NCBI GenBank assembly: GCA_913062605.1
Contig: CAJXWQ010000002.1
Coordinates: 4,761-68,760 of the forward strand
Reading direction: 5' to 3'
DNA: 64,000 nt
Origin: an uncultured Cellvibrionales bacterium
Lineage (GTDB): Bacteria; Pseudomonadota; Gammaproteobacteria; Pseudomonadales; Porticoccaceae
Part shown: positions 35,952 through 56,630 of the stretch, in pieces
Position numbering within the stretch: the stretch's first letter is position 1
Layout: each line of letters starts with the position of its first letter
The notes under the pieces: model-generated
What the model was told of the DNA's origin: nothing
What the model saw: the letters and a program-made list of their open reading frames with translations, nothing else
The model's database searches: none
Made by a program: the position numbers and the translations under genes

Positions 35952-36028
35952 GGGCCCATAGCTCAGCTGGTTAGAGCAGTCGACTCATAATCGATTGGTC
36001 GAAGGTTCAAGTCCTTCTGGGCCCACCA
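35952..36028 (+). tRNA. tRNA with CAU anticodon, tRNA-Ile2 (lysidine)-like; intact cloverleaf
   Basis: GGGCCCA/TGGGCCC acceptor stem. D, anticodon (CTCATAA loop) and T arms all pair. CCA is encoded. Close resemblance to E. coli ileX as I recall it, including C4-G69/C5-G68. Same position downstream of rpoD. Confidence 0.9.
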
Positions 36029-37332: not shown

Positions 37333-37478
37333 TATTTTACGAATCAATAGCTTATAGTCGTTGGGTCGCCCTACTCTATAGGCAAATGAGTCGGCGACTC
37401 CCTCAGTTCTCCGTAAGTCCCCCAGAACATCTTGTCATAAAATCAAAATAAGTAAGTCTTCGCACAAGGCCATCAACA

Positions 37479-37912
37479 ATGGACACCGTAGACTCAAAAA
37501 AGCGCTCACAAATGATGCCCACCATAAAAGGCAAAGACACCAAGCTTGAGCTAACTATCCGCCGCCCCCTTTATCACCGAGGTTACTGATACCGAACCAA
37601 TGTCAGGTCGCTACCGGGATGCCCCGACCTTGTATTCAAAAAGTACCACTCCGTAATTTTTATAAACAGCTGTTTTGGCACGGCCACAAAAACTGCCACC
37701 TCGCCTACACCCCAAAAACCCGCACGGAATTTTGGGCATCAAAAATATCGGCAACAAAACAGTGGGACAAAAAATGTATCGAAGACCTTGAGTAACTTGA
37801 CTGGCGAGCTCTTTCCGTATGGGAGTGCTGCATTGAAGGCAAAGCCATCAAGAATCTACCAACACTCACAAACCTTATTGAAACATGGCTAAAAAGCAGC
37901 CAAGCCTCCTAG
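37479..37912 (+). pseudogene. vsr: Very-short-patch repair endonuclease (Vsr) pseudogene
   Basis: MDTVDSKKRSQMMPTIKGKDTKLELTIRRPLYHRGY, then TGA, then YRTNVRSLPGMPDLVFKKYHSVIFINSCF. A frameshift leads to WHGHKNCHLAYTPKTRTEFWASKISATKQWDKKCIEDLE, then TAA, then LDWRALSVWECC... No dcm partner is present. Confidence 0.8.
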
Positions 37913-37999
37913 ACACTCAGAGCAAATAAAAGCATTTATGTTGACAAAAATTGAGTAACACTAAAAGATAGTGATCAATTACTATCTTTTGGAGCTGGT

Positions 38000-38608
38000 A
38001 TGCAGCCGAAAAGCAAACACTTGCCCGCAGATGAGCGCCGCGCTGTTACTGTTGAAGCCGTCATTGAGCTCTCGGCAGAACAAAATCCTGGTGATATAAC
38101 TACGTCAGCCATTGCTAGGCACATGAACTTAACTCAAGGTGCACTATTTCGCCATTTCCCCAATAAGGAAGCTATTTGGCAGGCAGTGATGGAATGGGTT
38201 TCGGAACACTTGCTCGCACGGGTAGACAAGGCGATAAAGGCTGAAAAAACACAACTTGCAGCACTGGAAGCGGTGTTTGTAACCCATATCGAATTTGTCG
38301 CAGCGCACCCGGGTGTACCGCGTATGCTGTTTGGTGAATTACAGCGGGCCGAGGATACTGCTCCTAAACGCATGGCGCGAACTCTTCTACGGAAATACGG
38401 TGAACGACTGACTGTATTGATAGAGAAGGGCAAGGCCGAAGGTGAAATTGATTCCGCTGTTGATACTGTGGCTGCGGGAACATTGTTCATAGGCACCATT
38501 CAAGGCTTGGTTATGCAGTCATTGCTAGCCGGGGATACTGGAAGTATGCGAGATAAGGTGCCAAGGGTATTCACAATTTATCGCCGAGGTATCGAGCGCA
38601 GCATATGA
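38000..38608 (+). CDS. TetR/AcrR-family transcriptional regulator
   Basis: 202 aa. N-terminal HTH ITTSAIARHMNLTQGALFRHFPNKEAI. 4-nt overlap with the adaptor gene. Confidence 0.88.
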   Translation: MQPKSKHLPADERRAVTVEAVIELSAEQNPGDITTSAIARHMNLTQGALFRHFPNKEAIWQAVMEWVSEHLLARVDKAIKAEKTQLAALEAVFVTHIEFVAAHPGVPRMLFGELQRAEDTAPKRMARTLLRKYGERLTVLIEKGKAEGEIDSAVDTVAAGTLFIGTIQGLVMQSLLAGDTGSMRDKVPRVFTIYRRGIERSI

Positions 38609-43000: not shown

Positions 43001-43118
43001 ATTTGGCATGCTGACATCCACAGTATTGATTATGCTGGTATTGCCTGCCATGTATGCAATTATGGAAGATATTGGTTTTGTGAAATTGTCGGCAGAACCA
43101 GAGCGGATAGCTGCATAG
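40011..43118 (+). CDS. RND-superfamily efflux permease (AcrB/AcrD/AcrF family)
   Basis: 1035 aa. Twofold TM1-loop-TM2-6 architecture and typical length. No outer-membrane factor gene is adjacent. Confidence 0.9.
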   Translation: MIRYFAAHPTISNILMMAIIAIGFSSLSGLNKESFPLLKPSKVQVTVAYPGAGPADVEDGICNPLEDATDGISFLKEQECDARDNIAIFTLEMQEAGNIREFTDDIKTEIDAIQNFPENIEDPVIKQLGRINPVANIAITSDKLTATELKELAEYYRDRLIAMPQIPIVSMDGFSTHQLQILIRPDIQQKYHLSVQDIANLIAAQALELPAGTLEATETSYQIRFDNVRKTADELANLIIINTPKGGEIKLGDLAEIENKFEKPEERIELNGKPAALLKISKNSIDDTLKVADALIEFVEKENKILPEGTRLTIVSDASTLVRDRLKLLLTNGWQGLILATLMLLLFFSWRYTFWIALGLPISFLGGLAMMVVFGVSINMISMVALLMAIGILMDDAIVLSENIDNEYRKGKTPLEAAVDGTKKVFRGVFSSYLTSAFLFGSLLMMTGDLGQVLGVLPVVLLSVLTISLIEAFLVLPHHLKHSLKHSNHKTPPKWRQQFEALFDRFRHTVGRAATLAMQFRYITVGIALAMLIFSVGLVATGIVKFKAFPDLEGNNLEARILLPQGTPLAETERVVDTLLASLDETNKTLSQNETEELVKNVQLSYGKHGDVPENGTHLATLSIDLLNTEERNTKMDELIQLWKQQTGVLPDVLSIQYKEPKVGPAGRAIHIRLSGQDMDQLSRASWEVQNWLRGYIGVNNLLDDLRPGKPQYNIKLKPGALVAGIDSRSIASQLRSAYLEVKISEIYKGREAYEIIAKLDSLPGRELHDFDNFTVFSKTGKEIPLGSVAIITEEREFSRIGHINHQRTVNIYGDVDAGIANTSEIITNFQSDFINTLQERYPDITFKLKGEVENGAETKLSILSGFGLGSIGVFLLLSLQFRNFREPIVVMVNIPLALIGAIWGHLIMGLDFTLPSMIGFVSLAGIVVNDSILLVEFVKYRVEEGMVLHDAARQAVYDRFRAIFLTSVTTIAGMTPLLFETSTQALILVPLVTSIVFGMLTSTVLIMLVLPAMYAIMEDIGFVKLSAEPERIAA

Positions 43119-43221
43119 TCAAAGCTTGTGAGAATTGAAATATATCCAGGTCAGCCAGCTACAGGTGATATACAACAAATACAATTCTCCATACCGCTTA
43201 TAATCAAATAGAAAGCACACC

Positions 43222-43457
43222 ATGAAAACTTATAAATTACTATCCTCCTAGGGGACAACGGTTCTGAGTGATACACCAGGCACGTTGGGAAGAAACAGTA
43301 AGGCTAGTATTTACGGTCGCCTCGATTGCTCAGCTGAAAATAGAGCTCTCTCGAAAGGTTATGACCAACACCGTGTATTTTTTGCCAATGAACAGAATGC
43401 CATACAAGCGGGATACCGACCTTGTGGAAGCTGTATGAGGAGCAGTACAAAAAATGA
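43222..43457 (+). pseudogene. Ada-type metal-binding-domain small protein, pseudogene (in-frame TAG plus frameshift)
   Basis: MKTYKLLSS, then TAG, then GTTVLSDTPGTLGRNSKASIYGRLDCSAENRALSKGYDQHRVFFANEQNAIQAGYRPCGSCM. The expected ending EEQYKK-stop is in another frame. Track ORF 43285-43776 runs through the tRNA repeat and is an artefact. Confidence 0.6.
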
Positions 43458-43510
43458 AAGTCTGGCCCAGAGGGTGAAGGGAGTTACCCTTGGAGAAAGT
43501 TACCAGACTG

Positions 43511-43857
43511 AAAGCCCCTCCGAGTCCACCAAGTTCGGTTTTCGTTCGGTATTCCGCATACAACTTTCCATACGGTTCATAACCGAATGGCCTGTCGCCA
43601 CTGACTTCCGACGCCAACAAGTTCGGTCATGGTTCGGTCTATTTCCAGCCCACTCCAGCCGCCTCAAAAACCCCTTACAATTCTTCCACTTAGGACAGCC
43701 AAATCAGCAGTCCGTGCTTCTCATAATCGATTGGTCGAAGGTTCAAGTCCTTCTGGGCCCACCATTTCTCTTATAATTCATAGGCTTGCCATAAGCTGAG
43801 CATCCGAGTCTATGGGCAGAGCGGGTGACCTTTTTTTGTGCCTGTCGTCTGGCGACG
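43511..43857 (+). repeat. ~345-bp island-junction repeat unit C (contains tRNA 3' fragment 43720-43764)
   Basis: Collinear with unit D (50773-51116): about 210 bp upstream with GTTCGG/CCGAAC motifs, the 45-bp tRNA core, and about 93 bp downstream (TTTCTCTTATAATTCATAGGCTTGC...GGCGACG). Confidence 0.9.
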
Positions 43858-43939
43858 TGTCGACAGGTGCGTCAATTGTTTGCTCCCTTTTCTTTTTGTG
43901 CTACCTATGGGCTACTTTCAGACAGCTTCAAATCCTGCC

Positions 43940-44011
43940 TCGTAACGCCCAACTAAGGGGCTAAAAAAAGCCCGGCTTTTGACAGCCCATGCATTAAGCG
44001 GCTTGTTATGT
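43940..44011 (-). repeat. attC-like imperfect palindrome 1 (downstream of GNAT gene)
   Basis: Reverse strand: ACATAAC starts 4 nt after the GNAT stop and the element ends in GTTACGA. 72 bp. Shares TAACGCC...AAGGGGC arm sequence with element 2. Confidence 0.5.
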
Positions 44012-44015
44012 GCTT

Positions 44016-44552
44016 TCACCAATATTCCTGTTTATTCAATGCTTTTACGCACTCAGATGAGCCTTCCATTACATCAATCACGCCACTTTGTAGTGATTGG
44101 GCAAGCCAACCTTCAGGCTGTGTTAGTTTTAAAGGCGCTTTTACAATATCTTCGCTGATTTGTTGAAAACCTACTTTAGAGTAAAAGGTTGGATCTCCAT
44201 ATGTGAATACTAGGTCTACATCTTTGAGCCTTAGGTACTCAATACCATACCTGATAAGTTGTTGACCTATTCCTTTTCCCTGTTGTTCTGTAGCAATAGC
44301 AACAGGGGATAGAATAAATGCAATTTTTTCACTCGGAAGTGTAAGGCGGCTGAAGAATATACAACCTACTATTTCTTCTTCCAGAACTGCAACAAAGCCC
44401 AAGATATCACGTTCATCAGTCGTAATGATTAGATCGGACACCAAGCTACCAATTGATTCACCTTCGCCCTGCCCTTCAGAGTCAGAGAACACTTTAGTAA
44501 AGAGATTGATAACATCTGGAGACTGATTTTCACTAAAGGTCGAAATCTTCAT
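44016..44552 (-). CDS. GNAT-family N-acetyltransferase
   Basis: 178 aa. Acetyl-CoA motif QQGKGIGQQLIRYGI. Confidence 0.85.
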   Translation of the reverse strand: MKISTFSENQSPDVINLFTKVFSDSEGQGEGESIGSLVSDLIITTDERDILGFVAVLEEEIVGCIFFSRLTLPSEKIAFILSPVAIATEQQGKGIGQQLIRYGIEYLRLKDVDLVFTYGDPTFYSKVGFQQISEDIVKAPLKLTQPEGWLAQSLQSGVIDVMEGSSECVKALNKQEYW

Positions 44553-44595
44553 CCTTTTAACTCAATCTCATTTTTGTGCCATGAAGTACGCAGAC

Positions 44596-44656
44596 ACATA
44601 ACGCCTAGTTAAGGGGCGCATGGTGTTTTGCGTCCCGCTTGAACGTCTTGTTAGGC
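44596..44656 (-). repeat. attC-like imperfect palindrome 2 (downstream of DUF4405-like gene)
   Basis: Reverse strand: GCCTAAC (RYYYAAC) starts 5 nt after the stop and the element ends in GTTATGT. 61 bp. The arms pair, with bulged G and T bases. Confidence 0.6.
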
Positions 44657-44661
44657 ATGTG

Positions 44662-45045
44662 TTAACGATTATGATGATAATGCTGCGGCCCTCTTTGAAT
44701 ATCAGTAACTGGAGACAAAATCGGAGAAAATGCGAGAGCAATTAAAGCTATTAACCCCAGTACTCCAGCTATTATTCGGTAATATTTTTCTGTTGGGGCC
44801 TTTCCCATTATCACGCTTTTGATGAATTTTGCATGCACTACTAAATGTGCAGACACAAACAACAAAAAAATAACAGAGAGGTAATAATGAACATTACCCC
44901 AATCATGTCTTGATAAGCCCCACACTTCATCTCCACCACTTCTTGGGGGTAGAGTGACTTTTAGAAAAATACCAGTAGAGAGCATGAACATTAATGCTAC
45001 AAAGGAAAGAAAATCTAGGATCTTTGTAATTAAAAATTGGTTCAT
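44662..45045 (-). CDS. Small membrane protein, DUF4405-like (His-containing, cytochrome-b-like helices)
   Basis: 127 aa with 3-4 hydrophobic helices. WGNVHYYLSVIFLLFVSAHLVVH pattern. Family assignment is from memory. Confidence 0.6.
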   Translation of the reverse strand: MNQFLITKILDFLSFVALMFMLSTGIFLKVTLPPRSGGDEVWGLSRHDWGNVHYYLSVIFLLFVSAHLVVHAKFIKSVIMGKAPTEKYYRIIAGVLGLIALIALAFSPILSPVTDIQRGPQHYHHNR

Positions 45046-45064
45046 AGTTCTTCTCTTGTCATGT

Positions 45065-45093
45065 GCCTAACGCCGCATTTTGCGGCGTAACGG
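45065..45093. repeat. Short palindrome GCCTAACGCCGCA-TTT-TGCGGCGTAACGG (degenerate or half attC-like element)
   Basis: Shares the GCCTAAC / TAACGCC motifs with the other elements but is too short for a full attC. Confidence 0.3.
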
Positions 45094-45174
45094 GAAATTT
45101 GTTCGACAACAGTGTCTTGGTATGTATTTACGTTAAGTTACACCGAACTAAGCACAGCCTCCTTGCTTAGCTAT

Positions 45175-45237
45175 ACATAACTCCCCGCCCAAGGGCTTTC
45201 ATCTAGCAAGCCCTTGGTTTGAGGTGGGTGGTTAGAT
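45175..45237 (-). repeat. attC-like imperfect palindrome 4 (downstream of cytochrome c peroxidase gene)
   Basis: Reverse strand: ATCTAAC (RYYYAAC) starts 3 nt after the stop and the element ends in GTTATGT. 63 bp. Central 10-bp perfect stem CCAAGGGCTT/AAGCCCTTGG, with bulged flanks. Confidence 0.6.
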
Positions 45238-45240
45238 GAA

Positions 45241-46227
45241 TTACTCAAAAGGCTTTGGTTTGGGGGTGCTATCTGTGGATGGAGGCAAGATTGGCAATAC
45301 GAAGGTAGGCTGGTCACCAGTGAGTGTTTTAAGGAAGGCGACAATTTTCGCATTTTCCTCAGGGGTGAAATTCTTAGCCAGCTGTAATCTGCCCATGACA
45401 TCAACTGCCTCAGTGAGGGTTTCAGCCTCACCATCATGAAAATAGGGATAGGTCAGTTCCACATTGCGTAGAGTTGGAACTTTGAACCTGAAACGATCAG
45501 TATCTTTTCCGGTAACAGCAACCAAACCCTCAGCTGGATTCTTTGTGTCATATGCTTCAATTACGCCCATTTTCTGGAAAGAAGTACCACCCATCGCAGG
45601 ACCATTGTGGCAGGCCTGACAACCCGAATTTTGGAATAGTTGGTAGCCAGCAGTTTCATCAACGGATAGCACGTCCTTATCGCCCAAGAGCCATTGATCG
45701 AATCGAGAATTTGGTGTGACTAATGTTTTTTCAAATTCGGCAATCGCCTGTGTGACCTGATCAATATCGATCTTGTTTTTGCCAAACACTTGTTTGAATT
45801 CTGCTATATATTGTGGAATTGACTCTAATACATTAATAGCAAGGGCATGAGTTGATGCCATTTCGCCGGGGTTTTCGATGGGCCCGCCAGCTTGGGCCTT
45901 TAGATCTGCTGCGCGACCATCCCAAAACTGGGCAATATTCATACTAGAGTTAAGTACAGTCGGAGCGTTGATAGGGCCCTGTTGCCAATTATGTCCTATG
46001 GAAGTCTTCAGGTTATCTGTTCCACCCAGACTAAGGTTATGGCATGAGTTACAGGAAATAAACCCAGACTTGGATAACCTGGGATCAAAATACAACTTCT
46101 TGCCTAATTCAACTTGTGCAAGATTCAATTCTTTTGCGGGCACTATCGGCTCTATTGCTAACGCCCCAATTATAAAACCCAATAGCCCCACACTAATGAA
46201 TGATAAAACAAGTAGATTTTTCTTCAC
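45241..46227 (-). CDS. Di-heme cytochrome c peroxidase (CcpA/MauG family)
   Basis: Two CxxCH motifs (CNSCH, CQACH) and a signal-anchor N-terminus. GTG start at 46227 preceded by GGAG; the track ORF extends to 46281. Confidence 0.88.
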   Translation of the reverse strand: MKKNLLVLSFISVGLLGFIIGALAIEPIVPAKELNLAQVELGKKLYFDPRLSKSGFISCNSCHNLSLGGTDNLKTSIGHNWQQGPINAPTVLNSSMNIAQFWDGRAADLKAQAGGPIENPGEMASTHALAINVLESIPQYIAEFKQVFGKNKIDIDQVTQAIAEFEKTLVTPNSRFDQWLLGDKDVLSVDETAGYQLFQNSGCQACHNGPAMGGTSFQKMGVIEAYDTKNPAEGLVAVTGKDTDRFRFKVPTLRNVELTYPYFHDGEAETLTEAVDVMGRLQLAKNFTPEENAKIVAFLKTLTGDQPTFVLPILPPSTDSTPKPKPFE

Positions 46228-46317
46228 AACTAACTCCGATTTTTTGATAAAAATAAGGTGTCTTAATTCAACACATGACACCTAGTGCTGCGACTGGAAC
46301 ATCTTGTCCTGCACATT

Positions 46318-46605
46318 TTATTTGTGGGCAATAAGTTTATCCGTAAACAAATAATCTTTTAGCTCTTTATCAAAGCTAGGGTCTTTTCTTCTTATCCATT
46401 CAAGAACCATTGCTGCATGCTCTTTCTCCTCATCTCTATTATGAGCAAGGATTGCTTTTAATTCTTCATCTTTACATGCATCTACTCGTTGATTGTACCA
46501 ATCTACGGCTTCAAGCTCTTCCATCAGCGATATAATAGCTCTATGCATATCTCTTGTTTCGTTTGTAAGCTCTTCTATAGGCTCGTGATAACCTTCATTT
46601 GACAT
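46318..46605 (-). CDS. Encapsulated-ferritin-like (EncFtn family) protein lacking a C-terminal encapsulin targeting peptide
   Basis: 95 aa. HRAIISLMEELEAVDWYNQRVDACKDEELKAILAHNRDEEKEHAAMVLEWIRR closely matches the EncFtn core as I recall it from Rhodospirillum rubrum, including the Glu/Glu-x-x-His iron ligands. The protein ends at LFTDKLIAHK. Confidence 0.75.
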   Translation of the reverse strand: MSNEGYHEPIEELTNETRDMHRAIISLMEELEAVDWYNQRVDACKDEELKAILAHNRDEEKEHAAMVLEWIRRKDPSFDKELKDYLFTDKLIAHK

Positions 46606-46778
46606 GTTTTTTCCTCGGTAATTGGATGGCTTCGATAATTCATAACGGTTTGCCGTTCAGCAGCTGCGACCTCAGCCAACTGCCCGCCCTATCGGGGTGT
46701 GATCTGACTTTCCTTTATTTTTTATTTTCCAAGCCTAAAACTATTTGCCCACTTAGTGGCGTGAAATCAAACGTCTCT

Positions 46779-47795
46779 TTACTCCATAGCAGCTGTGTAC
46801 TGGCCATACCTCGCCACACCATTTAGCTTGGCTCGCTTATACAACGCCGCTTGCATTTGTTTTGCATTGGCCGCATTCCCTTTCCAAGCAACCAAAGCTG
46901 GATGTTGCAACGCGCGCCCATAAGAAAAACTCAGCTCCCATGGATGCAGCCCGATTTGGTTCATTGCATTCAGATATTCGGTTGATGCTTCATCCGACAG
47001 CCCACCAGAAAGAAAATGAATAGAGGGTACTGCCGCTGGCACCGTTCTTCTTAAAATCTTAACTGTCTCGTGAGCGATTTCTTCTGGGGTGGCTTGTTTC
47101 GTACAATCCTTCCCCGGAACAATCATATTGGGTTTTAGTAGGATATGCTCCAGAGTAACCCCCTCTTGCACTAGAGCTTGGAACACAGCATGTTGAACAG
47201 CTTCTGTTACTTTCGCGCACTGCTCCATGGTGTGGTCACCATCCATCAATACTTCGGGCTCTACAATCGGCACCATACCCGCTTCCTGACAAACCTTCGC
47301 GTAACGCGCTAACACCTTAGCGTTCTCATCAATAGCCAGTTGACTCGGCGTGTGTTGGGAAATGGTATACACGTCACGCCACTTGGCAAATCGCGCCCCT
47401 TGTTTTTTATAGCCGTCTAAACGCTCAGCCAAACCTTCTAGACCTACAGTAATTTCGTCGCCAAGCTCACCGCCCTCGAGAGAAATCTTACCTTTATCAA
47501 CCTTAATGCCAGGCACGACGCCCTGCTTAACCAATAATTCAGGAATAGGAACACCATTGTCATCAAACTGCCCTAACGTCTCTTCGAACAAGATGACACC
47601 GCTAATAAATTCGCCAAGACCGGGCGTTGATAGCAATAAACTGCGGTAAGCACGACGCTTTTCCTCCGTCGATTCGACCTCAATGGCAGTAAAGCGTTTA
47701 GCTATTGTTGGGCTACTTTCATCCGCCGCCAAAATACCTTTGCCTTTAGCGGCTAATGCATCAACCGTCGTCTGAAGTTGCTGAACTCTATTCAT
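46779..47795 (-). CDS. Class I fructose-bisphosphate aldolase
   Basis: 338 aa. GKGILAADES, LLKPNM (Schiff-base Lys region) and LSGG motifs. Confidence 0.88.
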   Translation of the reverse strand: MNRVQQLQTTVDALAAKGKGILAADESSPTIAKRFTAIEVESTEEKRRAYRSLLLSTPGLGEFISGVILFEETLGQFDDNGVPIPELLVKQGVVPGIKVDKGKISLEGGELGDEITVGLEGLAERLDGYKKQGARFAKWRDVYTISQHTPSQLAIDENAKVLARYAKVCQEAGMVPIVEPEVLMDGDHTMEQCAKVTEAVQHAVFQALVQEGVTLEHILLKPNMIVPGKDCTKQATPEEIAHETVKILRRTVPAAVPSIHFLSGGLSDEASTEYLNAMNQIGLHPWELSFSYGRALQHPALVAWKGNAANAKQMQAALYKRAKLNGVARYGQYTAAME

Positions 47796-47972
47796 AAGCT
47801 ATGTCCTCTCACTTTACGATAATCGGATTAATGCCTTGACGACAGTGGCCGCCAAAGATATCGACAACAATACCAATAATACTATCAGGCGGGTTTCCAC
47901 GCTGGATACTTGGCTTATGCCTTTGGCATCTCTAGTGCCGGCACTTTATATTATATATATCTAATCTATATT

Positions 47973-47987
47973 TATCTAATTTAGATA
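47973..47987. promoter_or_regulatory. Palindrome TATCTAA-T-TTAGATA, candidate ArsR/BigR operator
   Basis: Perfect 7-1-7 inverted repeat about 40 nt upstream of the ArsR-family gene start, within an AT-rich promoter region. Confidence 0.45.
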
Positions 47988-48025
47988 CATGTGATATAGT
48001 TGACTCCAAGATTGGAGAATAATGT

Positions 48026-48352
48026 ATGACAACAAACCAAGATGTTATGACTAAAGATATGGCTGCGTTACAAAAACACGCCAAGGATGCTGCTAATTTA
48101 TTAAAAACGCTAGGCAACGAACATCGATTGCTCGTGCTGTGTACGCTAATGAATAGCGAGCTATCCGTCGGTGAACTGAATGACATGATACCTTTGAGCC
48201 AATCGTCACTATCCCAACATCTGGCCTCGCTGAGAAAGGCGGGACTGGTGCAAACACGCAGAGAGTCTCAAACCATTTATTACCGCCTGTGTGGCGACGA
48301 GGCCATTAGAATTATTTCTGTTCTTCAGTCAATTTATTGTCCCGATTTATAA
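48026..48352 (+). CDS. ArsR/SmtB-family repressor (BigR-like)
   Basis: 108 aa. LKTLGNEHRLLVLCTL...ELSVGEL...SQSSLSQHLASLRKAGLV winged-HTH. Heads a sulfur-related operon. Confidence 0.85.
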   Translation: MTTNQDVMTKDMAALQKHAKDAANLLKTLGNEHRLLVLCTLMNSELSVGELNDMIPLSQSSLSQHLASLRKAGLVQTRRESQTIYYRLCGDEAIRIISVLQSIYCPDL

Positions 48353-48364
48353 ACGAGGTATACC

Positions 48365-48910
48365 ATGACCAACCCACAAACAACAATTTCTGTAACTGAT
48401 TTTGCATCCCTAATCGATTCGAATAGCAACGTAACCATTGTTGATGTTCGCACCAAAGCAGAAATTGATAACGAATTTCTTGAGGGCTGCCTGAACGTAC
48501 CATTGCAAGATATTACCGCGGCCACCTTTGAATCGGCGGTGGCCCATTGTGACACTGCAGACACTATTTACTTGTTGTGCGGCAGTGGATTACGGGCCCA
48601 AAAAGCTACCGAACAGCTGCAAGGTGCAATTGCCAACCCCCTAGTGGTTGTTTCAGGAGGTATTCAGGCGATGAAGCAGGCCGGAATTAGCCTGAAGAAA
48701 GGCCGTGGTAATGTAATTTCACTGGAACGACAAGTTCGTATTACTGCGGGCTCACTGGTTGTACTGGGGGTCATTTTAGGCAGCTTGGTTACACCGGGGC
48801 TTTATGGTCTATCTGCTTTTGTTGGTATAGGGCTCGTTTTTTCCGGTGTCACAGATACTTGTGGTATGGGAATGATCATGGCTCGTATGCCATGGAATCG
48901 CTCAGCTTAG
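48365..48910 (+). CDS. Rhodanese-domain protein with C-terminal DUF2892-type membrane domain (YgaP-like)
   Basis: 181 aa. Active-site loop CGSGLRA. C-terminal hydrophobic hairpin with GVTDTCGMG. Confidence 0.8.
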   Translation: MTNPQTTISVTDFASLIDSNSNVTIVDVRTKAEIDNEFLEGCLNVPLQDITAATFESAVAHCDTADTIYLLCGSGLRAQKATEQLQGAIANPLVVVSGGIQAMKQAGISLKKGRGNVISLERQVRITAGSLVVLGVILGSLVTPGLYGLSAFVGIGLVFSGVTDTCGMGMIMARMPWNRSA

Positions 48911-48920
48911 GTCACGCTCT

Positions 48921-49751
48921 ATGGCACTGTTAATTGGTATGGTGATTGGCTTGGTACTTGGTCTGACCGGTGCGGGGGGATCTGTGTTTGCTGTACCACT
49001 GCTTATCCTGCTGCTGTCACTACCCGTCAGTGATGCCATAGGTATCGCTCTGGGCGCTGTCGCCATCAGCGCACTCTACGGCACTATCAATAACTGGCGC
49101 TACAAAAGTATTTTATGGATTCCTTCCATCATTCTGGGGACGACTGGCGTCTTGTTCGCCCCTCTGGGTAAATTGATCGGTAATCAGCTATCTCCCTCAC
49201 TACTGCTAGTAGGCTTTAACGGTTTGGCCATTATGGTTGCACTGCACATGTGGCGACAAGCATCCAAACACCCGGAGCAAACCAGCATTGTTCGTTCTGG
49301 CCATATGACACCAGAAAATTTTGTGGGCCCTGCATGCCGTATGAGTACCACTGGGCAGTTCGAGTGGCGACCTCGCTGCGTGGGTAGTCTGGCAGCTGGA
49401 GGAATGATCGTGGGGTTACTAACCGGTTTATTTGGCGTGGGGGGTGGCTTTTTAATTGTGCCATTACTGATATTCCTCAGCCAGGTCTCCATGCAGCAGG
49501 CAGTGGGAACCTCTCTGCTGATCATCACCGCGGTTGCCACGTCAGGGTTTTTAAGCTTTACCGCCACTGCACCCAATGTGAATTGGGCCCTTCTAGGGCT
49601 TATCGCCACTGGAGGAGTTGTGGGTATGTTTATTGGCCGCCTAGTGAGTCACAAGATCGCCAGCCCGCAATTGCAAAAGATATTTTCCATCAGCCTAATT
49701 GCCATTGCCCTTATAACCCTAGCCCATCAATGGACAGCCAGCCCACCTTAA
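48921..49751 (+). CDS. TauE/SafE-family sulfite/anion exporter
   Basis: 276 aa. Two repeats of a GxGGG-containing 4-TM unit (LTGAGGSVF, LFGVGGGFL). Confidence 0.8.
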   Translation: MALLIGMVIGLVLGLTGAGGSVFAVPLLILLLSLPVSDAIGIALGAVAISALYGTINNWRYKSILWIPSIILGTTGVLFAPLGKLIGNQLSPSLLLVGFNGLAIMVALHMWRQASKHPEQTSIVRSGHMTPENFVGPACRMSTTGQFEWRPRCVGSLAAGGMIVGLLTGLFGVGGGFLIVPLLIFLSQVSMQQAVGTSLLIITAVATSGFLSFTATAPNVNWALLGLIATGGVVGMFIGRLVSHKIASPQLQKIFSISLIAIALITLAHQWTASPP

Positions 49752-49768
49752 ATGATCGGGAGCCCGCT

Positions 49769-50467
49769 ATGATTTTTAGACAACTATTCGATATCCAATC
49801 ATCTACCTACACTTACTTGATAGCCGATGAGGATACAGGTGAAGCCGCCCTGATCGACCCCGTCATCGATAAGACTGATGACTACCTGATGTTACTGATG
49901 CAACTAGAGCTTAAGTTAATTGTTGCTGCCGACACCCATACCCACGCTGATCACATCACTGCATTGGGCCTGTTACGGGAGCATACAGGCTGCCAGACAA
50001 TGGTGGGGCAGCAATCTATTGCGGAATGTGTGTCCAGTAAATTTTCAGCAGGTGATCATATTGTGGTTGGCAAACTTAGCCTGGAAATTCTGTACACGCC
50101 GGGGCATACGGATGACTCCTACAGCTTTTATCTGTCATCCGACGGTCGGTCAATGTTGTTTACTGGTGATACCTTACTGATTCGTGGTACCGGGCGTACA
50201 GATTTTCAAAGTGGTGATCCCCGACAACAATACGACAGCTTATTTGGAAGTTTACTGACATTCACCGGTGATACGCTGGTATATCCAGGCCATGATTATA
50301 AAGGCTGGTCAGTGAGCACCATTGATGAAGAAAGAACTCACAACCCGCGACTGCAAGTGACCAATAGCGATGCTTATGCCGAACTAATGGATGGTTTGAT
50401 GTTGCCCAACCCTAAATTGATGGATGTGGCCGTGCCGGCCAATCAGAAGTGTGGAAATACTCGGTAG
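49769..50467 (+). CDS. Metallo-beta-lactamase-fold persulfide (sulfur) dioxygenase, ETHE1/Blh-like
   Basis: Track ORF starts at 49583 inside the previous gene. ATG at 49769 (MIFRQLFDIQSSTYTYLI) is the usual start. THTHADH motif is present. Confidence 0.85.
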   Translation: MIFRQLFDIQSSTYTYLIADEDTGEAALIDPVIDKTDDYLMLLMQLELKLIVAADTHTHADHITALGLLREHTGCQTMVGQQSIAECVSSKFSAGDHIVVGKLSLEILYTPGHTDDSYSFYLSSDGRSMLFTGDTLLIRGTGRTDFQSGDPRQQYDSLFGSLLTFTGDTLVYPGHDYKGWSVSTIDEERTHNPRLQVTNSDAYAELMDGLMLPNPKLMDVAVPANQKCGNTR

Positions 50468-50772
50468 GCATGGTAAGTTTTTGCCAGATTCAGAACCAAT
50501 ATCGAGGCATTAGATCAAGCGACAGAAATTTTTCGAGCAGCCAAAGGTGCTTCTTATGAGGACGCCCTTAGGATGGCTACCAAAGGAAACTGCAAGCTCC
50601 TGGTAAAAAAGTTTCTGAGACTTTTCGGACAAGTTGTCAACGGCAAAATTCACCAAGATGAGCAATGGAGGACTGAAGGGATTAACGGTATAAAGGAAAT
50701 TCAAGCCAAGCTTGGAAAAGCTGATTGTTGGGATTCGGTTTGACTAGCAGTCTCTCAGAACCAAAATACTAC

Positions 50773-51116
50773 CAAAGCCCTAACCTACCAGGTTCGGTTT
50801 TCGTTCGGTGTTCTACATACAGCTTCCCATGCAGCTCATAACCGAATGACCGATTAAAACCAACTTCTGACTCCAGCAAGTTCGGCCATGGTTCGGCTAG
50901 CGGTCGACACACACCAGCAACCTCAAAAACTCCTTACACTTCTTTCCCTTACGACGCCCAAAACCAACAGTGCGAGGTACTCATAATCGATTGGTCGAAG
51001 GTTCAAGTCCTTCTGGGCCCACCATTTCTCTTATAATTCATAGGCTTGCTATAAGCTGAGCATCCGACTCTATGGGCAGAGCGGGTGGCCTTTTTTGTGC
51101 CTGTCGTTTGGCGACG
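50773..51116 (+). repeat. ~345-bp island-junction repeat unit D (contains tRNA 3' fragment 50979-51024)
   Basis: Collinear with unit C. Same GTTCGG motif layout and same 3' flank. Confidence 0.9.
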
Positions 51117-51170
51117 CCAGCACCCGCCGGCTCTAAAGCATCAAGAATACTCTCTGAACAACCACTACAG

Positions 51171-51216
51171 ACTCATAATCGGCAGGTCCCCAGTTCAAGT
51201 CTGGGAAGGCCCACCA
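51171..51216 (+). repeat. 3' fragment of a different tRNA(CAU) allele
   Basis: ACTCATAATCGGCAGGTCCCCAGTTCAAGTCTGGGAAGGCCCACCA. It has its own T arm (CCCAG/CTGGG) and the acceptor 3' strand AAGGCCC. No 5' half is present. Confidence 0.8.
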
Positions 51217-51221
51217 ATATG

Positions 51222-51249
51222 CCTCAGCCTGATAAGGTTGAGGTTTTTT
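51222..51249 (+). terminator. Rho-independent terminator attached to the heterologous tRNA fragment
   Basis: CCTCAGCC-TGATAA-GGTTGAGG followed by TTTTTT. Confidence 0.7.
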
Positions 51250-51885
51250 CTTTGCCCGCATATTGCGGCGAACAAATACACTTACACAAACCGCCAGAAC
51301 ATGCACGATAATTGCAGTCGAAAATAACCTGTACCGAGAGCCTGAGAAAGCCTAGAAGCGCTAATATCTATAGCTGAGGATGTTGGATTGGTGTGCAACA
51401 ACGCCCACAACCGGCTCCTGAGTCGAACCTGAGGTCAACGGCTAGTATTAGTTCCAACACCGAATATCTTTCTGGACAACTTCTTTAGGCAAGATTCACG
51501 CCTGAGCAACCAATCTATATGGATACATATAGAGCGACAGGTTTAACCACCCCCTTAAATTTTCGACAAGTGATTAATCATCACCCATTTTTCTACTTCA
51601 TATCAAATGCTCTCTCAGATAATAAGCCCTAGCTGAAGCGGTTTTGACAACAGCATCTTTGCCCTTGCCAACATTAACTGATAGCGATTAGAATCGCTGA
51701 CTTAGGGCAAAAAATCAGTGAGCCTAATACTCAAATCGTATAGTTAATTGCAGATCGCCCTTGACCAGCTCCCAGGAACGACTTGCTGAGCCACTGAAAA
51801 AGAATGGTATCGGAACTACCTTCAGCAAGTAACAAAACAAGGAGCATTTAGCACACGATGAGAAGCCACTGGGGGAAAACGTTTA

Positions 51886-52683
51886 ATGAGAGGCGCAATG
51901 AATGGATATCGCTTAGGTGCTACTTTTATTAAATGTATTAGTGCTGAGGTATTGGGTTCTGCTGCGGTAAACCACCCATATTTGCAAGCAATGCGTGAGG
52001 GTGATTTCCCCAATATTGACTTGGCGTTTAAGGATTTTGCATTTCAGTACGGTTTATATAGCACTATGTTTACCCGTTATGTATCAGCAGTGATTAAGAA
52101 CCTCAGTAATACTGAACACAAGAAAGTTCTTCTGGCCAATCTAGCCGAAGAACAAGGCGATACTCACGATGTTGATCTACCTCCCGGTGTGCTGGCCAGC
52201 GTAGTCGGACAACCACACGCAAGCTTATATCGCCGCTTTCAAGAAGCTCTGGGGATTGATGCCGATTACTGCAAAACTGCACAACAGTGCCAAACAAGCC
52301 TGTTGTGGGGTCAACAGTTTTTACAGCTGTGTAAGATGAACGAGTGTGTCGGTGTGGGCGCTATCGGTATTGGTACCGAACTTGTCGTTTCCCCTATTTA
52401 TGATCAGATTCTTGAAGGGCTTAAAACACATAGCAACCTGACGATGACACAACGTGTGTTCTTTGATTTGCACAGCCAATGTGATGAAGAGCATGCTGCC
52501 CAAATGCTATTGATTACCGAAGATTTGGCTCAGGATCGCACTGCTTGTGAACAAATTGAATATGGCGCTAGAATGGCTATCAACATGCGAGTTGCCTTTT
52601 GGGACAAAATGCTAGAACGTGCCCATAACTTTCCCGCCTCCACCCTCCCTGCTATTGAGAAGTTATCTGCCGTTGGATACTGA
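51886..52683 (+). CDS. Heme-oxygenase-like fold, iron-containing redox enzyme family protein (putative diiron oxidase/oxygenase)
   Basis: 265 aa, all-helical pattern. NLAEEQGD, PHASLYRRF, GTELVV and FFDLHSQCDEEHA match the E/H/E/H-D-H ligand layout of the PF14518-type family. A GGGGGA RBS lies 9 nt upstream. Confidence 0.75.
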   Translation: MRGAMNGYRLGATFIKCISAEVLGSAAVNHPYLQAMREGDFPNIDLAFKDFAFQYGLYSTMFTRYVSAVIKNLSNTEHKKVLLANLAEEQGDTHDVDLPPGVLASVVGQPHASLYRRFQEALGIDADYCKTAQQCQTSLLWGQQFLQLCKMNECVGVGAIGIGTELVVSPIYDQILEGLKTHSNLTMTQRVFFDLHSQCDEEHAAQMLLITEDLAQDRTACEQIEYGARMAINMRVAFWDKMLERAHNFPASTLPAIEKLSAVGY

Positions 52684-53419
52684 AAAAGTCTATAACGACA
52701 ATGCCGAGAAGTGGTTGCGCTTAGCACCGAGCTCCCTGTCTGATTTTACTGCGCGCCCTTTGGTGTTTGAGACCTGTGGTGAGTTAAAAGCTCGCTCAGT
52801 GTTAGACATTGGCTGCGGCGAAGGCTATTGCGCACGGGAGCTGAAGCGTCGTGGCGCTGGCGATTACCTGGGCGTGGATTTGTCTGAAGAAATGATTAAA
52901 GCTGCTCAGGCGCAGGAAGTAAAAGATCAATATGGAATCGAGTACTGTGCCTGTAATGTGGTGGAGTTTAGTCCTGACCGGCAATTTGACCTTTGCATTG
53001 CGGTGTTCTTGTTTAACTATCTGCGGGTAGAAGAAATGCAGCGCGTGTTTTCGATGGTATATGAGGCATTGCAGCCCCAGGGCCAGTTTATTTTTAGTGT
53101 ACCCCATCCTTTCTTTCCCTTTGTACGTTCTGATCAGACGGCACCCTTTTACTTTGCCTCCACAGGAAAGAACTACTTTGCAGATGTGGATCAACAATTT
53201 GAGGGAGAAATTTGGAAGCGGAGTGGAGAGCCTTTACACGTGCAGTGCGTACACAAAACCTTTGGTGATTATTTTGATAACTTACGCCTTGCAGGCTTTA
53301 CCAACATGCCCGAAATGAAAGAGCTAACCGTTACACCCGAGCTGGTCGCAATGGACGAGGCCTTCTTCTCACCACTGTTAAATGAGCCGTTACATCTGCT
53401 GTTTAAAATTTCCAAATAA
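52673..53419 (+). CDS. Class I SAM-dependent methyltransferase
   Basis: VLDIGCGEGYCARELKRRG motif I and DLCIAVFLFNYL. The start is uncertain: there is no ATG, and the track uses 52619. TTG at 52673 overlaps the upstream stop by 11 nt. Confidence 0.75.
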   Translation: MDTEKVYNDNAEKWLRLAPSSLSDFTARPLVFETCGELKARSVLDIGCGEGYCARELKRRGAGDYLGVDLSEEMIKAAQAQEVKDQYGIEYCACNVVEFSPDRQFDLCIAVFLFNYLRVEEMQRVFSMVYEALQPQGQFIFSVPHPFFPFVRSDQTAPFYFASTGKNYFADVDQQFEGEIWKRSGEPLHVQCVHKTFGDYFDNLRLAGFTNMPEMKELTVTPELVAMDEAFFSPLLNEPLHLLFKISK

Positions 53420-53444
53420 TGACGGCTGCCCCTAGGTCAACACA

Positions 53445-56186
53445 ATGCCAACGCCCAACTCGTTGATCGAACGTCTCTTTCATTACGAAGAAAATAACCC
53501 CGCTCATGAGGCAGTTGTAACCCCAACGTTTACATTGTCTTATGCCCAACTGGCCCAACTTGTAAGGGCGCAGGTAAAAGCATTTAACAATGCAGGCATT
53601 TCGGGCAACGCTATTATCGGGATCAAGTGCGCCGATGATATACAACACTTGGTGGTGTGCCTCGCCACTACTCATATTGGCGCTACATCGTGCACAATTC
53701 CCACGTACGAGGCTGCTCAAACACAAAATTCCATCATCAGTCATTGCGGCGTTACCCATACAGTTGATGAGAAGATAGCTGTAGACCCAACATCTATAGA
53801 AAAAAGGCCTCAGGAAAGCAGGCCATTAGAAAACAACGCCAATTCAATAGTAGTAGAGACACCTGCATCTGAGGCGCAGCTTTTGTTTTCCACCTCAGGT
53901 ACAACGGGTGAACCTAAACTGGTGATTCATCATGACAGCGATCTGGTAGCGCAAGCCCATCGCCACATTGTTTCTAAACAGGAACGCTTTGCCTGCCTGG
54001 CACCGATGGAGCACAACTTTGCCAAGCGTCACCGCCTCTACTGTGTAGCAGCAGGAGCGACCAATGTATTTCTTAGCGCGGAGCCGGAATCACTGGTCAC
54101 CCAAAGCCAGTCGCTAAACGTTAACGTCATGCATGTATCTGCCTTTCAGGCACAAGAATTATTAGCGATGCCTGACATCAGTAAGCTATCCAATATCCGG
54201 TTGAAGCTTGGTGGCTCGCATGTTCCCTTATCACTCCGACAGCAACTGCGAGACACCATCACCAATAATCTGCAAGCCGGCTACGGCACCACTGAAACAG
54301 GTGCAATTGCATTTACTGATCCAAATGATTTGAACGCAGGTGAAAGCGTCGGCCAATCATTGCCCGGAATAGAAATACGCGTAGTCACACCGGAAAGAAA
54401 ACCTCTTGGCATTGGTAAGCGTGGAGAATTAGCCGTTCGTTGTGAAGGTATGTTCCGCGGTTACCTCGGCAAATCCGACCTGGCTGCTACCCGGCTTGGG
54501 GATGGCTGGTTCCATACGGGTGACATCGGCTATCTGGATAGCCAACAGCGTATTCATCTGTGTGGCCGATCCGACGACATGTTTGTGTTCAACAGCATGA
54601 ACATTTACCCCCAGGATATTGAGTCTGAGATTCGTCAATATCCGGGGATCATCGATGCTGTAGTGCTTCCTAAAAAATCATCTGTACACGGTAACATTCC
54701 AGTGGCCCTAGTTGTTTTCGCCAAGCATGTGAAACAGCATCTACCCGCATTAAAAAAGTTTGTACAGAAGCGGGTTGGCGTTCGCAGCCCACGACAGTAC
54801 ATTATCGTTGATGAAATCCCGAAAAATCCCTCCGGCAAAATTTCTCGTCTAAAAGCAATGAACCTGCCAGCAAAGAGCGGCCAAATTCGTAGCGACATTA
54901 TTGATATGCTTGATCCACGCATAACAAAGCACTTGAAACCCTCGCTAATCACTGCCTTTAAAAATGGTGATCAAGATATAACTTTCCGTGAACTCAGAAT
55001 GGATTCACTGGCTCGCATGGATTTTTTGGTCGCACTAGAAACAAATTATGACACCGTCATTACACTACGAGAGTTTGCTGGGTTTCGCTACCTTGGTAAC
55101 ATTGCCGCCCATGTTTTATCGCCATCATCGCAACACGGGCTGGAAGAAGACTCTACCCTTCCAACAAGCAGTTCAAGCGACTCAAGCCACATAGCAATCC
55201 AGGCAGATTCCCTTCCCTACGTAGTGCGCTTTTTTCAACGTATCTTTAGTTATTGCCACACAGCTGCACAATTGAATAGAGCGTTCTCTACACTGGAACA
55301 CCGCTTAACTCCAATGGAAGTAGAGTGCCTATATGACTGGCACCTTAACAGCCAACTTATCCCAACAGAGGCAGCAACAAAATTCCAAACAGCGGCTTCC
55401 AACTGGCTAAAAGAAATGAAAAACTTGATGCTGAACAGTGGAAAACAGGCGCCAGAACCATTTTTTTCACGCAGGGTTGCACCTAATGCCACTCTTTTTT
55501 CTGGCGCGGGATTACCAACTGACAAGACGCTATTGATCTGCTTTCCACCGGGGGGTATTCGTCACCTGACGATACCCAATGCCACGTTAATGCAACACAC
55601 AAACTCAGCGCGTTTTGACCTATTAATTATCTCGGATCCTTTTAAGGAAGGTTATCGACTTGGTACTCCTCCATTTGGTAAATACCAGAGTGAAGTTATT
55701 GAGCAGCTAGCCAACCGAAATTTGATTAGCAAATATAGCAGTATTCGCACCTTGGGGTTCAGTGCCGGAGCCTACCCAGCACTGATAGCAGGCTATCTTT
55801 TGAAGGCAGAAATGGCTCTCAGCATAAGTGGCCGCTTCCATCGTAAAAAGAACATCCTCAAAAATTTGGATAAAGTGATTACAACTTGGAAAATGGTGCG
55901 CAAGGGGCGCTGTTCACGAGTGCTGATAAGCTACTCCACAGACCATTCTCGCGACCAAAAATATGCCAGAATCATTGGCAAAATCTCTGGTGGCAGTAAG
56001 GTTGCTATCGAAATTAAAAATGAAAAAACCAGACATTTAATTCTTCAGCGGTTGCTAGAACGTGGTGAATTAGCAGCATTCCTAGCGCGCACTATTTTTG
56101 CGGAAATGGATGACAAGCTAATTGCCACCGAACGGACAAACGTAATCATGTCCTTCCCTGCCGCCCAAATACGGCCGTCTGAGTAG
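53445..56186 (+). CDS. Adenylate-forming enzyme (ANL) - carrier protein - unknown linker - alpha/beta-hydrolase-like fusion protein
   Basis: 913 aa. Adenylation motifs FSTSGTTGEPK, GYGTTETG, WFHTGDIGYLD and PKNPSGKISR. Carrier motif ELRMDSLARMDFLVALE. C-terminal region with GFSAG nucleophile elbow. Confidence 0.8.
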   Translation: MPTPNSLIERLFHYEENNPAHEAVVTPTFTLSYAQLAQLVRAQVKAFNNAGISGNAIIGIKCADDIQHLVVCLATTHIGATSCTIPTYEAAQTQNSIISHCGVTHTVDEKIAVDPTSIEKRPQESRPLENNANSIVVETPASEAQLLFSTSGTTGEPKLVIHHDSDLVAQAHRHIVSKQERFACLAPMEHNFAKRHRLYCVAAGATNVFLSAEPESLVTQSQSLNVNVMHVSAFQAQELLAMPDISKLSNIRLKLGGSHVPLSLRQQLRDTITNNLQAGYGTTETGAIAFTDPNDLNAGESVGQSLPGIEIRVVTPERKPLGIGKRGELAVRCEGMFRGYLGKSDLAATRLGDGWFHTGDIGYLDSQQRIHLCGRSDDMFVFNSMNIYPQDIESEIRQYPGIIDAVVLPKKSSVHGNIPVALVVFAKHVKQHLPALKKFVQKRVGVRSPRQYIIVDEIPKNPSGKISRLKAMNLPAKSGQIRSDIIDMLDPRITKHLKPSLITAFKNGDQDITFRELRMDSLARMDFLVALETNYDTVITLREFAGFRYLGNIAAHVLSPSSQHGLEEDSTLPTSSSSDSSHIAIQADSLPYVVRFFQRIFSYCHTAAQLNRAFSTLEHRLTPMEVECLYDWHLNSQLIPTEAATKFQTAASNWLKEMKNLMLNSGKQAPEPFFSRRVAPNATLFSGAGLPTDKTLLICFPPGGIRHLTIPNATLMQHTNSARFDLLIISDPFKEGYRLGTPPFGKYQSEVIEQLANRNLISKYSSIRTLGFSAGAYPALIAGYLLKAEMALSISGRFHRKKNILKNLDKVITTWKMVRKGRCSRVLISYSTDHSRDQKYARIIGKISGGSKVAIEIKNEKTRHLILQRLLERGELAAFLARTIFAEMDDKLIATERTNVIMSFPAAQIRPSE

Positions 56187-56553: not shown

Positions 56554-56630
56554 GAGCCCTTAGCTCAGTTGGCTAGAGCGCTCGACTCATAATCGATTGG
56601 TCGAAGGTTCAAGTCCTTCTGGGCCCACCA
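56554..56630 (+). tRNA. Second tRNA(CAU)-like copy, chimeric: divergent 5' third, 3' 50 nt identical to the first copy; acceptor stem mispaired
   Basis: GAGCCCTTAGCTCAGTTGGCTAGAGCGCTCGACTCATAATCG... With the 3' strand TGGGCCC this gives A2.C71 and T7.T66 mismatches plus C27.T43. It may be a pseudo-tRNA. Confidence 0.6.

Follow-up and report, generated by a model that had tools for sequence, protein, structure and literature searches.

A conserved three-gene operon of marine proteobacteria combining a predicted heme-oxygenase-like dimetal oxidase, a methyltransferase and an adenylation-carrier-hydrolase fusion protein

What does a putative oxygen-activating enzyme do when its only genetic companions are a methyltransferase and a carrier-domain protein? 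The question is raised by a 4.3-kb locus of an uncultured Cellvibrionales bacterium (Porticoccaceae; assembly GCA_913062605.1), which lies within a 64,000-nucleotide stretch of contig CAJXWQ010000002.1 (positions 4,761 to 68,760), referred to here as the window and numbered from its first letter. Three tightly packed genes on the same, forward strand encode, in this order, a heme-oxygenase-like dimetal oxidase (HDO), a class I S-adenosylmethionine (SAM) methyltransferase and a protein in which an ANL adenylation domain, a carrier domain and an alpha/beta-hydrolase-fold domain are fused; together they are referred to as the triad. Each part belongs to a known superfamily, whereas the presumed off-loading domain at the end of the fusion is in no curated family. 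We consider it somewhat probable, from sequence and structural models, that the operon is a minimal carrier-dependent line that would turn a carboxylic acid into an oxidised, methylated product.

The three open reading frames (ORFs) lie where an initial annotation of this DNA had placed them, and the motifs that it quoted were all found at the expected places when their coordinates were checked in the sequence. The HDO gene (51886/51898..52683) encodes 265 aa from an ATG at 51886 or 261 aa from an ATG at 51898; the latter is probably the start, because orthologue alignments begin there and the motif GAGAGG stands 4 nt upstream. It carries the motifs NLAEEQGD (52138-52161), PHASLY (52213-52230), GTELVV (52372-52389) and DLHSQCDEEH (52465-52494). 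The longest ORF of the methyltransferase gene opens with a GTG at 52619. However, the most likely start is TTG 52673 (52673..53419, 248 aa), because the listed orthologues are nearly all 248 aa long, tblastn places the first aligned residue at position 20 of the GTG ORF for 15 of the 16 loci that include the 5' end of the methyltransferase gene, and the resulting 11-nt overlap with the HDO stop is also called in a relative, locus L001. Methyltransferase motif I (DIGCGEG) is at 52805-52825. The fusion gene (53445..56186, 913 aa) contains RMDSL at 54996-55010 and GFSAG at 55755-55769. The overlap and tight spacing of the genes imply co-translation. All three domain assignments made in the initial annotation hold, namely an HDO with a full ligand set, a class I methyltransferase and an adenylation-carrier-serine hydrolase; profile hidden Markov model searches matched PF14518, AMP-binding and PP-binding, and left residues ~590-913 of the fusion without a Pfam match.

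The triad had been described as an orphan module, which is not borne out. Homologues of the fusion protein fall into at least 120 clusters of ~900 aa; nearly all are full length, and identities are 48-100%. A search of genomes with the C-terminal domain as query yielded 17 loci, which belong to Thiotrichaceae, Kangiellaceae, Woeseiaceae, Piscirickettsiaceae, Oceanicoccus, Porticoccus, Pseudomonadales and Methylophilaceae. When the genome-scan loci were taken together with those from exact-protein look-ups, the order HDO, methyltransferase, fusion was the same in all 17 loci with enough upstream DNA, and loci with too little upstream DNA were consistent with it; the three genes thus co-occur in every locus examined outside the source genome. 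The triad is present in the cultured Zhongshania aquimaris, Litorivivens lipolytica and Porticoccus sp. W117 and is common in marine metagenomes. All-against-all clustering of the flanking ORFs of 18 other loci revealed no further gene conserved beside the triad. The earlier remark that no condensation domain, regulator or transporter accompanies the module applies both to the window and across these 18 loci, and neither the window nor the clustering placed a ketosynthase in the operon. Judged by its gene content and order, the operon is conserved and self-contained. A role as a defence system was considered and rejected, as a PADLOC scan gave only a generic methyltransferase-domain match.

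The product of the first gene matches PF14518 (Haem_oxygenas_2, "iron-containing redox enzyme") with 78.5 bits against a cut-off of 28.9 (6.9e-22), covering model positions 2-176 of 177. Its AlphaFold2 (AF2) model, for which 27 orthologues served as input, is all-helical with 12 helices and has a predicted local distance difference test score (pLDDT) of 89. Foldseek superimposed the model on CADD, BesC, HrmI, UndA and FlcD with template modelling (TM) scores of 0.68-0.76, at 11-18% identity. Both pairwise and profile alignments place the predicted ligands E88, H111, E165, H196, D200 and H203 on CADD residues E81/H88/E142/H174/D178/H181, and all six are invariant in the 27 orthologues. The enzyme is therefore predicted to combine a heme-oxygenase-like fold with a complete and invariant 3-His/3-carboxylate dimetal site and, by analogy with characterised members of the superfamily, is expected to bind Fe/Fe or Fe/Mn and to activate O2.

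A family-specific insertion of 16-17 residues (D92-Q109; 52159-52212), absent from CADD, lies between the first Glu and His ligands and splits the first ligand helix. It holds the nearly invariant His94 and Pro99. We take H111 as the probable ligand because its context, PH..LYRRF, matches NH..LWKQF of CADD; H94 would be the alternative. The insertion might supply an extra ligand or a substrate lid. A word-based search found 228 HDO homologues, and the best 120 of these 228 are all orthologue-grade, at 59-90% identity. The subfamily, which has no characterised member, appears to be tight and tied to the triad context.

The substrate class is suggested by the fusion protein. Its adenylation domain (53445..54884, aa 1-480) matches AMP-binding (4.1e-44; PF00501, 151 bits) and AMP-binding_C (PF13193, 34.7 bits), and contains SGTTGEPK (53895-53918), GYGTTE (54279-54296) and PSGKISR with the A10 lysine (54828-54848), all three of which are conserved among fusion homologues. 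In ANL enzymes, an A4 motif of the PMFH type marks acyl/aryl-CoA ligases, whereas the aspartate of FDxS binds an alpha-amino group. Here the A4 motif reads LAPMEHNF (PMEHNF, 54003-54020). The best NCBIfam models are FACS (217) and MenE (175.6), above the amino-acid adenylation model TIGR01733, which reaches 134.6 bits against a cut-off of 317. The best matches in the Protein Data Bank (PDB) are 4CL, FACS, malonyl-CoA synthetase and MenE, with benzoate-type ligases also among them. The domain belongs to the acyl/aryl-CoA-ligase branch and, because A4 is of the PMFH rather than the FDxS type, its substrate is probably a carboxylic acid and not an alpha-amino acid; the amino acid that the initial annotation had allowed as a possible substrate is not supported. 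The carrier domain follows at 54913..55124 (PP-binding; PF00550, 26.1 bits against a cut-off of 20.8), with Ser521, the codon at 55005-55007, in RMDSL. D520 and S521 both reach the highest class of conservation (>=97%) in 118 homologues, in keeping with the earlier reading of this motif as a carrier site. The carrier domain is followed by a Ser-rich linker.

The remaining third of the protein, of which a GFSAG nucleophile elbow had been called the only landmark, proved richer than that. The GFSAG is there, but two further catalytic positions are equally fixed. An AF2 model (pLDDT 88) shows residues ~590-913 to adopt a predicted alpha/beta-hydrolase fold, and the domain, at 55213..56183, has a four-helix subdomain at its N-terminus. 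The predicted catalytic residues are Ser773 in GFSAG (55761-55763), Asp837 (55953-55955) and His864 (56034-56036). G771-x-S773-x-G775, D837 and H864 are invariant in aligned orthologues of the fusion. In the wider family, Ser, Asp and His are present in 147, 143 and 142 of the 149 best representatives, and every alignment that covers these positions has them, except one with Pro for His. Foldseek returned 333 PDB matches at E<=1e-3, all of them alpha/beta-hydrolases among the matches listed, with a probability of 1.0 and TM scores of only 0.40-0.45; the best were DHPON hydrolase, AntI, FrsA, esterases and PETases. By sequence, the domain had no match in Pfam or NCBIfam even at E<=10 (including PF00975, Abhydrolase_x, BioH and BioG), and a PDB sequence search gave only noise (E > 0.4).

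When 1.84 billion representatives were searched with a profile of the C-terminal domain, 1156 family members were recovered at E<=1e-3 and 638 at E<=1e-10, the 1156 being clusters at 50% identity. The family comes as fused proteins of ~900 aa, as carrier-hydrolase didomains of ~430 aa and as stand-alone proteins of ~300 aa, and a few members carry a fused Sulfotransfer_4 or GT2 domain. In each of the five contexts read in which the proteins are unfused or only partly fused, an AMP-binding gene (470-485 aa) immediately precedes the hydrolase-family gene; the carrier is either encoded between them by a gene of its own (88-90 aa) or joined to the hydrolase as a didomain, and start and stop codons generally overlap. 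What accompanies these cassettes (loci L019-L024) varies: sulfotransferases with GT41, BKACE/GNAT, GT28 with TauE, acyl-CoA dehydrogenases, or none. Because the hydrolase contexts share the same three functions while their partners change, an adenylating enzyme, a carrier and the hydrolase form a recurrent unit, and HDO and methyltransferase are the accessory set that is specific to its fused version. The family of alpha/beta-hydrolases that goes with these adenylation and carrier functions is unannotated: current domain libraries miss it, and genome-mining tools that rely on such libraries probably do so too.

Of the three proteins the methyltransferase is conserved best: identity is 72-91% over the examined loci and 75-91% among the listed orthologues, which are mostly of 248 aa (248-268). 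It has a generic class I fold and matches Methyltransf_25/11 in Pfam. The closest solved structure (4e-21) is that of ToxA, the N-methyltransferase of toxoflavin. NCBIfam models for BioC, UbiG and CpaM all score far under their cut-offs.

We can now outline how the operon would work as a carrier-dependent line. The adenylation domain would activate a carboxylic acid without an alpha-amino group and load it as a thioester onto the phosphopantetheine arm of Ser521. With O2, the HDO would oxidise the substrate by hydroxylation, desaturation, C-C cleavage or N-oxygenation, and the methyltransferase would methylate it; both steps could take place on the carrier or before loading. Ser773 would then take over the acyl group, which may be released by hydrolysis or handed to an acceptor. 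Within this general scheme hydrolytic release is favoured over acyl transfer, being only modestly more likely. Several observations weigh against the scheme. Identity to any characterised HDO is only 11-18%. No phosphopantetheinyl transferase is conserved beside the triad, the window itself not having been searched for one. Hydrolytic release is not separable by sequence from acyl transfer or C-C lyase activity; DHPON hydrolase and AntI, the top fold matches of the C-terminal domain, cleave C-C bonds, though the TM score is only ~0.4. We know of no HDO that acts on a carrier-bound substrate, and oxidation on the carrier would be unprecedented. Lastly, the characterised HDOs are predominantly linked to fatty- or amino-acid substrates, according to a 2026 HDO review (PMC13108848).

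Other readings of the same genes differ mainly in the fate of the acyl group and in the chemistry of the HDO. The C-terminal Ser-Asp-His domain might be an acyltransferase, in which case the operon would attach an oxidised and methylated acyl group to a lipid, a sugar or a polymer of the cell surface. The domain would then be akin to SyrC, CmaE and CouN7, alpha/beta-hydrolases that shuttle acyl groups from a carrier to other acceptors. In the wider family, fusion of the hydrolase to Sulfotransfer_4 or GT2 and the vicinity of GT28, GT41 and sulfotransferase genes suggest glycoconjugate or lipid tailoring; the triad has no exporter, and cutinase/PETase-like folds occur among the structural matches. 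However, the HDO-methyltransferase version of the cassette lacks a conserved neighbour that is a glycosyltransferase, forms an acceptor or resides in the membrane, and a Pfam scan gave no evident membrane-anchoring family match in the HDO, the methyltransferase or the fusion. The sequence by itself reads alike for transfer and for hydrolysis. We regard this alternative as rather unlikely, though worth keeping in mind. Much less probable is masking of the BioC/BioH type, an analogy drawn in the initial annotation, whereby a dicarboxylate on the carrier would have its free carboxylate capped by the methyltransferase and its methyl ester later cleaved by the hydrolase. A SAM methyltransferase beside a serine hydrolase and a carrier for the acyl group fits this logic, and BioC is among the weak NCBIfam matches of the methyltransferase (1.5e-11). 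Yet the score is 44.6 bits against a cut-off of 184.95 for TIGR02072 and 30.9 against 342 for NF007610, which rejects a BioC equivalog, and UbiG, CpaM and others score as high or higher. The hydrolase matches neither BioH, BioG nor any other abhydrolase model, so that both proteins miss the family thresholds; the operon has no ketosynthase and is not tied to fatty-acid synthesis, hydrolases of this family are also found in cassettes without a methyltransferase, and the HDO would be left without a role. The analogy is thus not supported, and we give it hardly any weight.

A different chemistry would apply if the HDO were a self-sacrificing or tyrosine-cleaving aromatic-acid synthase like CADD and NePabS, making for example p-aminobenzoate (pABA), which would then be methylated, activated by the aryl-acid-type ligase and released. 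These two are the best sequence and fold matches of the HDO, with profile E-values of 1e-8 and 2e-5 and TM scores of ~0.69 query-normalised and 0.84 target-normalised, and the CADD model TIGR04305 is its sole NCBIfam match. With CtCADD/NePabS (1RCW, 8VA9, 9PJ4) it shares the seven-helix fold with E..H in helix 1, E in helix 2 and HxxxDxxH in helix 3. The HDO has many Tyr and Trp residues that do not vary in the 27 orthologues, the adenylation domain finds ligases of the 4-coumarate and benzoate type among its best matches, and the resemblance of the methyltransferase to ToxA would suit N-methylation. Against this, TIGR04305 scores 71.7 bits, far below its cut-off of 200, identity to CADD is ~18%, the insertion between the first two ligands is peculiar to the triad enzyme, and its context is a methyltransferase and an adenylation-carrier-hydrolase gene rather than that of folate. 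Tyr27 and Lys152, the sacrificial residues of CADD (PMC13108848), align to Leu33 and Ile175. We therefore reject a CADD-type pABA synthase, and the broader aromatic-acid reading is improbable. UndA-like alkene formation is also less likely than the carrier-dependent line, and UndA is a fold match at only 11-12% identity with no sequence-level match. Chemistry of the dimethylsulfoniopropionate (DMSP) type, that is S-methylation with oxidative decarboxylation, was considered and dropped, as the consulted parts of a DMSP review and other literature gave it no support.

The carrier-dependent line thus remains our preferred reading, and it resembles known systems only in part. The HDO shares with UndA, BesC, HrmI, SznF, FlcD/E, AetD, PolF and MboA the fold (TM ~0.7), the expected dimetal-O2 chemistry and, as with most of them, a place in a small biosynthetic cluster; identities are 11-17%. 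Stand-alone modules akin to nonribosomal peptide synthetases (NRPS-like) are known in several forms: adenylation-thiolation-thioesterase (A-T-TE) proteins, pairs of fatty acyl-AMP ligase and acyl carrier protein (FAAL-ACP), and aryl-acid:ACP ligases such as XanA2. Like these, the fusion joins an ANL enzyme and a carrier to an off-loading domain with no condensation domain. Unlike them, it has an adenylation domain of the acyl/aryl-CoA-ligase rather than the amino-acid type, and an off-loading domain that is not a PF00975 thioesterase, a reductase or a modelled abhydrolase and that has its own N-terminal helical subdomain. A hydrolase core, a helical N-terminal subdomain and a Ser-Asp-His triad are also found in FrsA, DHPON hydrolase and AntI (2JBW, 6HXA, 4I4C), the last of which acts on a carrier-bound polyketide; TM scores are 0.40-0.44 at 12-14% identity with no sequence-level relationship, and C-C hydrolase or lyase chemistry is not indicated. 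The operon would be an NRPS-like line pared down to loading and release, in which the tailoring enzymes are unusual and so is the release domain.

As the initial annotation had supposed, this gene combination could not be assigned to a described pathway or characterised cluster: no description of the triad was found in the consulted portions of the open-access full-text literature, including PMC13108848, a mangotoxin HDO paper and the SznF structure paper. The portions of PMC13108848 consulted do not mention an HDO paired with a carrier-domain protein of this architecture; only about a dozen HDOs have a reaction assigned to them, and the review notes that most of these transformations had no earlier parallel among diiron catalysts. 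The fixed context of the present subfamily, with a dedicated ligase, carrier and methyltransferase, supplies a means of finding an HDO substrate. Heterologous expression and knock-outs are straightforward for an operon this small and self-contained that occurs in cultured strains. The triad is thus well suited to the search for an undescribed metabolite and new enzymes, and whatever it makes could matter to ocean chemistry. A more far-reaching proposal can be put forward only tentatively, and we would not yet expect it to hold in full: that the triad makes a new methylated, oxidised acid or acyl modification widespread in marine proteobacteria, that its HDO is the first of the superfamily to act on a carrier-bound substrate, and that the C-terminal domain founds a large, unmodelled carrier-dependent Ser-Asp-His family, representing a new type of off-loading or transfer.

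How the triad came to its place in this genome is a separate question. It had been described as the sole cargo of an islet, and the local architecture gives this some substance. Perfect 47-nt direct repeats (50978-51024 and 56584-56630) flank a 5.5-kb unit that contains the triad. Both correspond to the 3' half of a tRNA-Met(CAT) gene. The right repeat is the 3' 47 nt of tRNA-Met copy 2 (56554..56630, forward strand), 368 nt downstream of the operon, and is identical to that of copy 1 (35952..36028, forward strand), which lies just downstream of rpoD. The left repeat (forward strand) is an attR-like 3'-half copy. Copy 1 anchors an island array at 36029-51024, a tandem of three integrase-less segments (36029-37332, 37333-43764 and 43765-51024), each of which ends in a 41-47-nt tRNA-Met 3'-half copy; two of these copies are at 37286-37332 and 43718-43764, and the third is the left repeat of the triad unit. 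In Rfam, tRNA-Met copy 2 scores 57 bits against 74 for copy 1, and direct reading of its 5' half reveals stem mismatches at 2:71 (A.C), 7:66 (T.T) and 27:43 (C.T), so that a chimeric gene is probable. Recombination may have produced it, and the tRNA may function poorly.

Comparison with five related genomes points the other way. In all of them the triad is directly to the right of the rpoD-linked tRNA-Met or its displaced 3' half; this is a small sample in which each relative was retrieved by homology to the fusion protein, so that relatives without the triad could not have shown up and presence in all five says correspondingly little about presence/absence polymorphism. L025 and L026 have an identical tRNA-Met, a terminator and 128 nt before the triad; in L025 an apparent rpoD 3' end precedes the tRNA, and no repeat is found on the far side of the triad. 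In L027 and L015, rpoD and tRNA-Met are followed by 0.8-2.4 kb before the triad. The order in L001 is rpoD, tRNA-Met, a YdjM-family gene, a window-type tRNA fragment and the triad. That fragment (L001 8172-8217; 3 mismatches) stands just upstream of its triad, and a fragment in the window (51170-51216) is identical to the 3' half of the tRNA-Met of L001. Such reciprocal fragments imply DNA exchange between both lineages at this hotspot. The YdjM-family gene, which is between tRNA-Met and triad in L001 (6918-7934), lies downstream of the triad in L025 (6355-7356), a swap which shows that units around the triad have been reshuffled in the manner of cassettes.

This arrangement is most simply explained if the triad natively flanks the rpoD-linked tRNA-Met on its right and ~15 kb of integrase-less islands has been wedged between the two. 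What speaks against it is the divergence of the genes themselves: between the window and L001 or L025, synonymous divergence (pS) is 0.23-0.46 for the triad and 0.51-0.75 for the rpoD, rluA-like, arfB and NYN flanks, from which it follows that the triad is not simply vertically inherited backbone. With the more distant L027, for which rpoD is the sole comparable flank, triad and rpoD divergence are similar. A small mobile islet integrated at tRNA-Met would account for the low pS, for the perfect repeats, shared with three neighbouring islands, for the presence of the other genome's type of tRNA 3' fragment beside the triad in both window and L001, and for the swapped order of triad and YdjM. 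It would also fit the fact that several loci, among them the unrelated L006 and L011, have a tRNA gene no more than ~2.5 kb from the triad, with tRNA-Met or tRNA-Phe as the neighbour in unrelated loci, and the occurrence of the triad in several gammaproteobacterial lineages and Methylophilaceae in unrelated contexts. We nevertheless consider an islet unlikely. All five relatives carry the triad at the same place, and in L025 it is 128 nt from an intact tRNA with no far-side repeat; triad GC content is 0.468 against a window mean of 0.450 (standard deviation 0.031), and its tetranucleotide distance is inside the backbone distribution. No integrase or excisionase was found among the ten larger ORFs scanned and the three triad proteins (36-57.6 kb). 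Moreover, standard tRNA-integration geometry puts an island 3' of the intact tRNA, whereas the triad is 5' of tRNA-Met copy 2. Of the earlier islet claim, the repeats and a history of exchange therefore stand; the triad appears to sit in a recombination hotspot and to have been exchanged between lineages, and is probably not the cargo of a discrete island.

The region upstream of the HDO gene can be read in the same light. A "550-bp non-coding leader" had been noted, and a non-coding stretch is indeed real, with ~640 nt separating the HDO gene from a hairpin terminator at 51221-51244. It is not a feature of the module, as L025 has only 128 nt from tRNA to HDO. Much of the spacer in the window is scar left by tRNA fragments. 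A second, divergent tRNA-Met 3'-half fragment at 51170-51216 is, with the terminator that follows it (both on the forward strand), read as an integration scar, and the leader is largely such scar. A search of 50400-52000 against Rfam, at the gathering threshold and at E<=1, gave nothing but a tRNA fragment, and the upstream regions of 14 loci had no common sequence outside the closest pairs, for which reasons a riboswitch or conserved regulatory leader was rejected. One segment (51599..51801, forward strand) is conserved, at 79% and to L001 only; it holds the best sigma-70-like promoter match, TTGCCA-18-TAGAAT, at 51665-51694.

The cargo of the neighbouring islands, as assigned by Pfam, comprises TetR with RND efflux, an Ada-like zinc protein, GNAT, DUF4405, a di-haem cytochrome c peroxidase and a class I fructose-bisphosphate (FBP) aldolase. 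A set resembling ArsR, rhodanese, TauE and metallo-beta-lactamase (MBL) proteins was read from ORF translations only, at 48026-50467. The ends of the second and third segments are alike, 43528-43857 and 50787-51116 being 80-96% identical.

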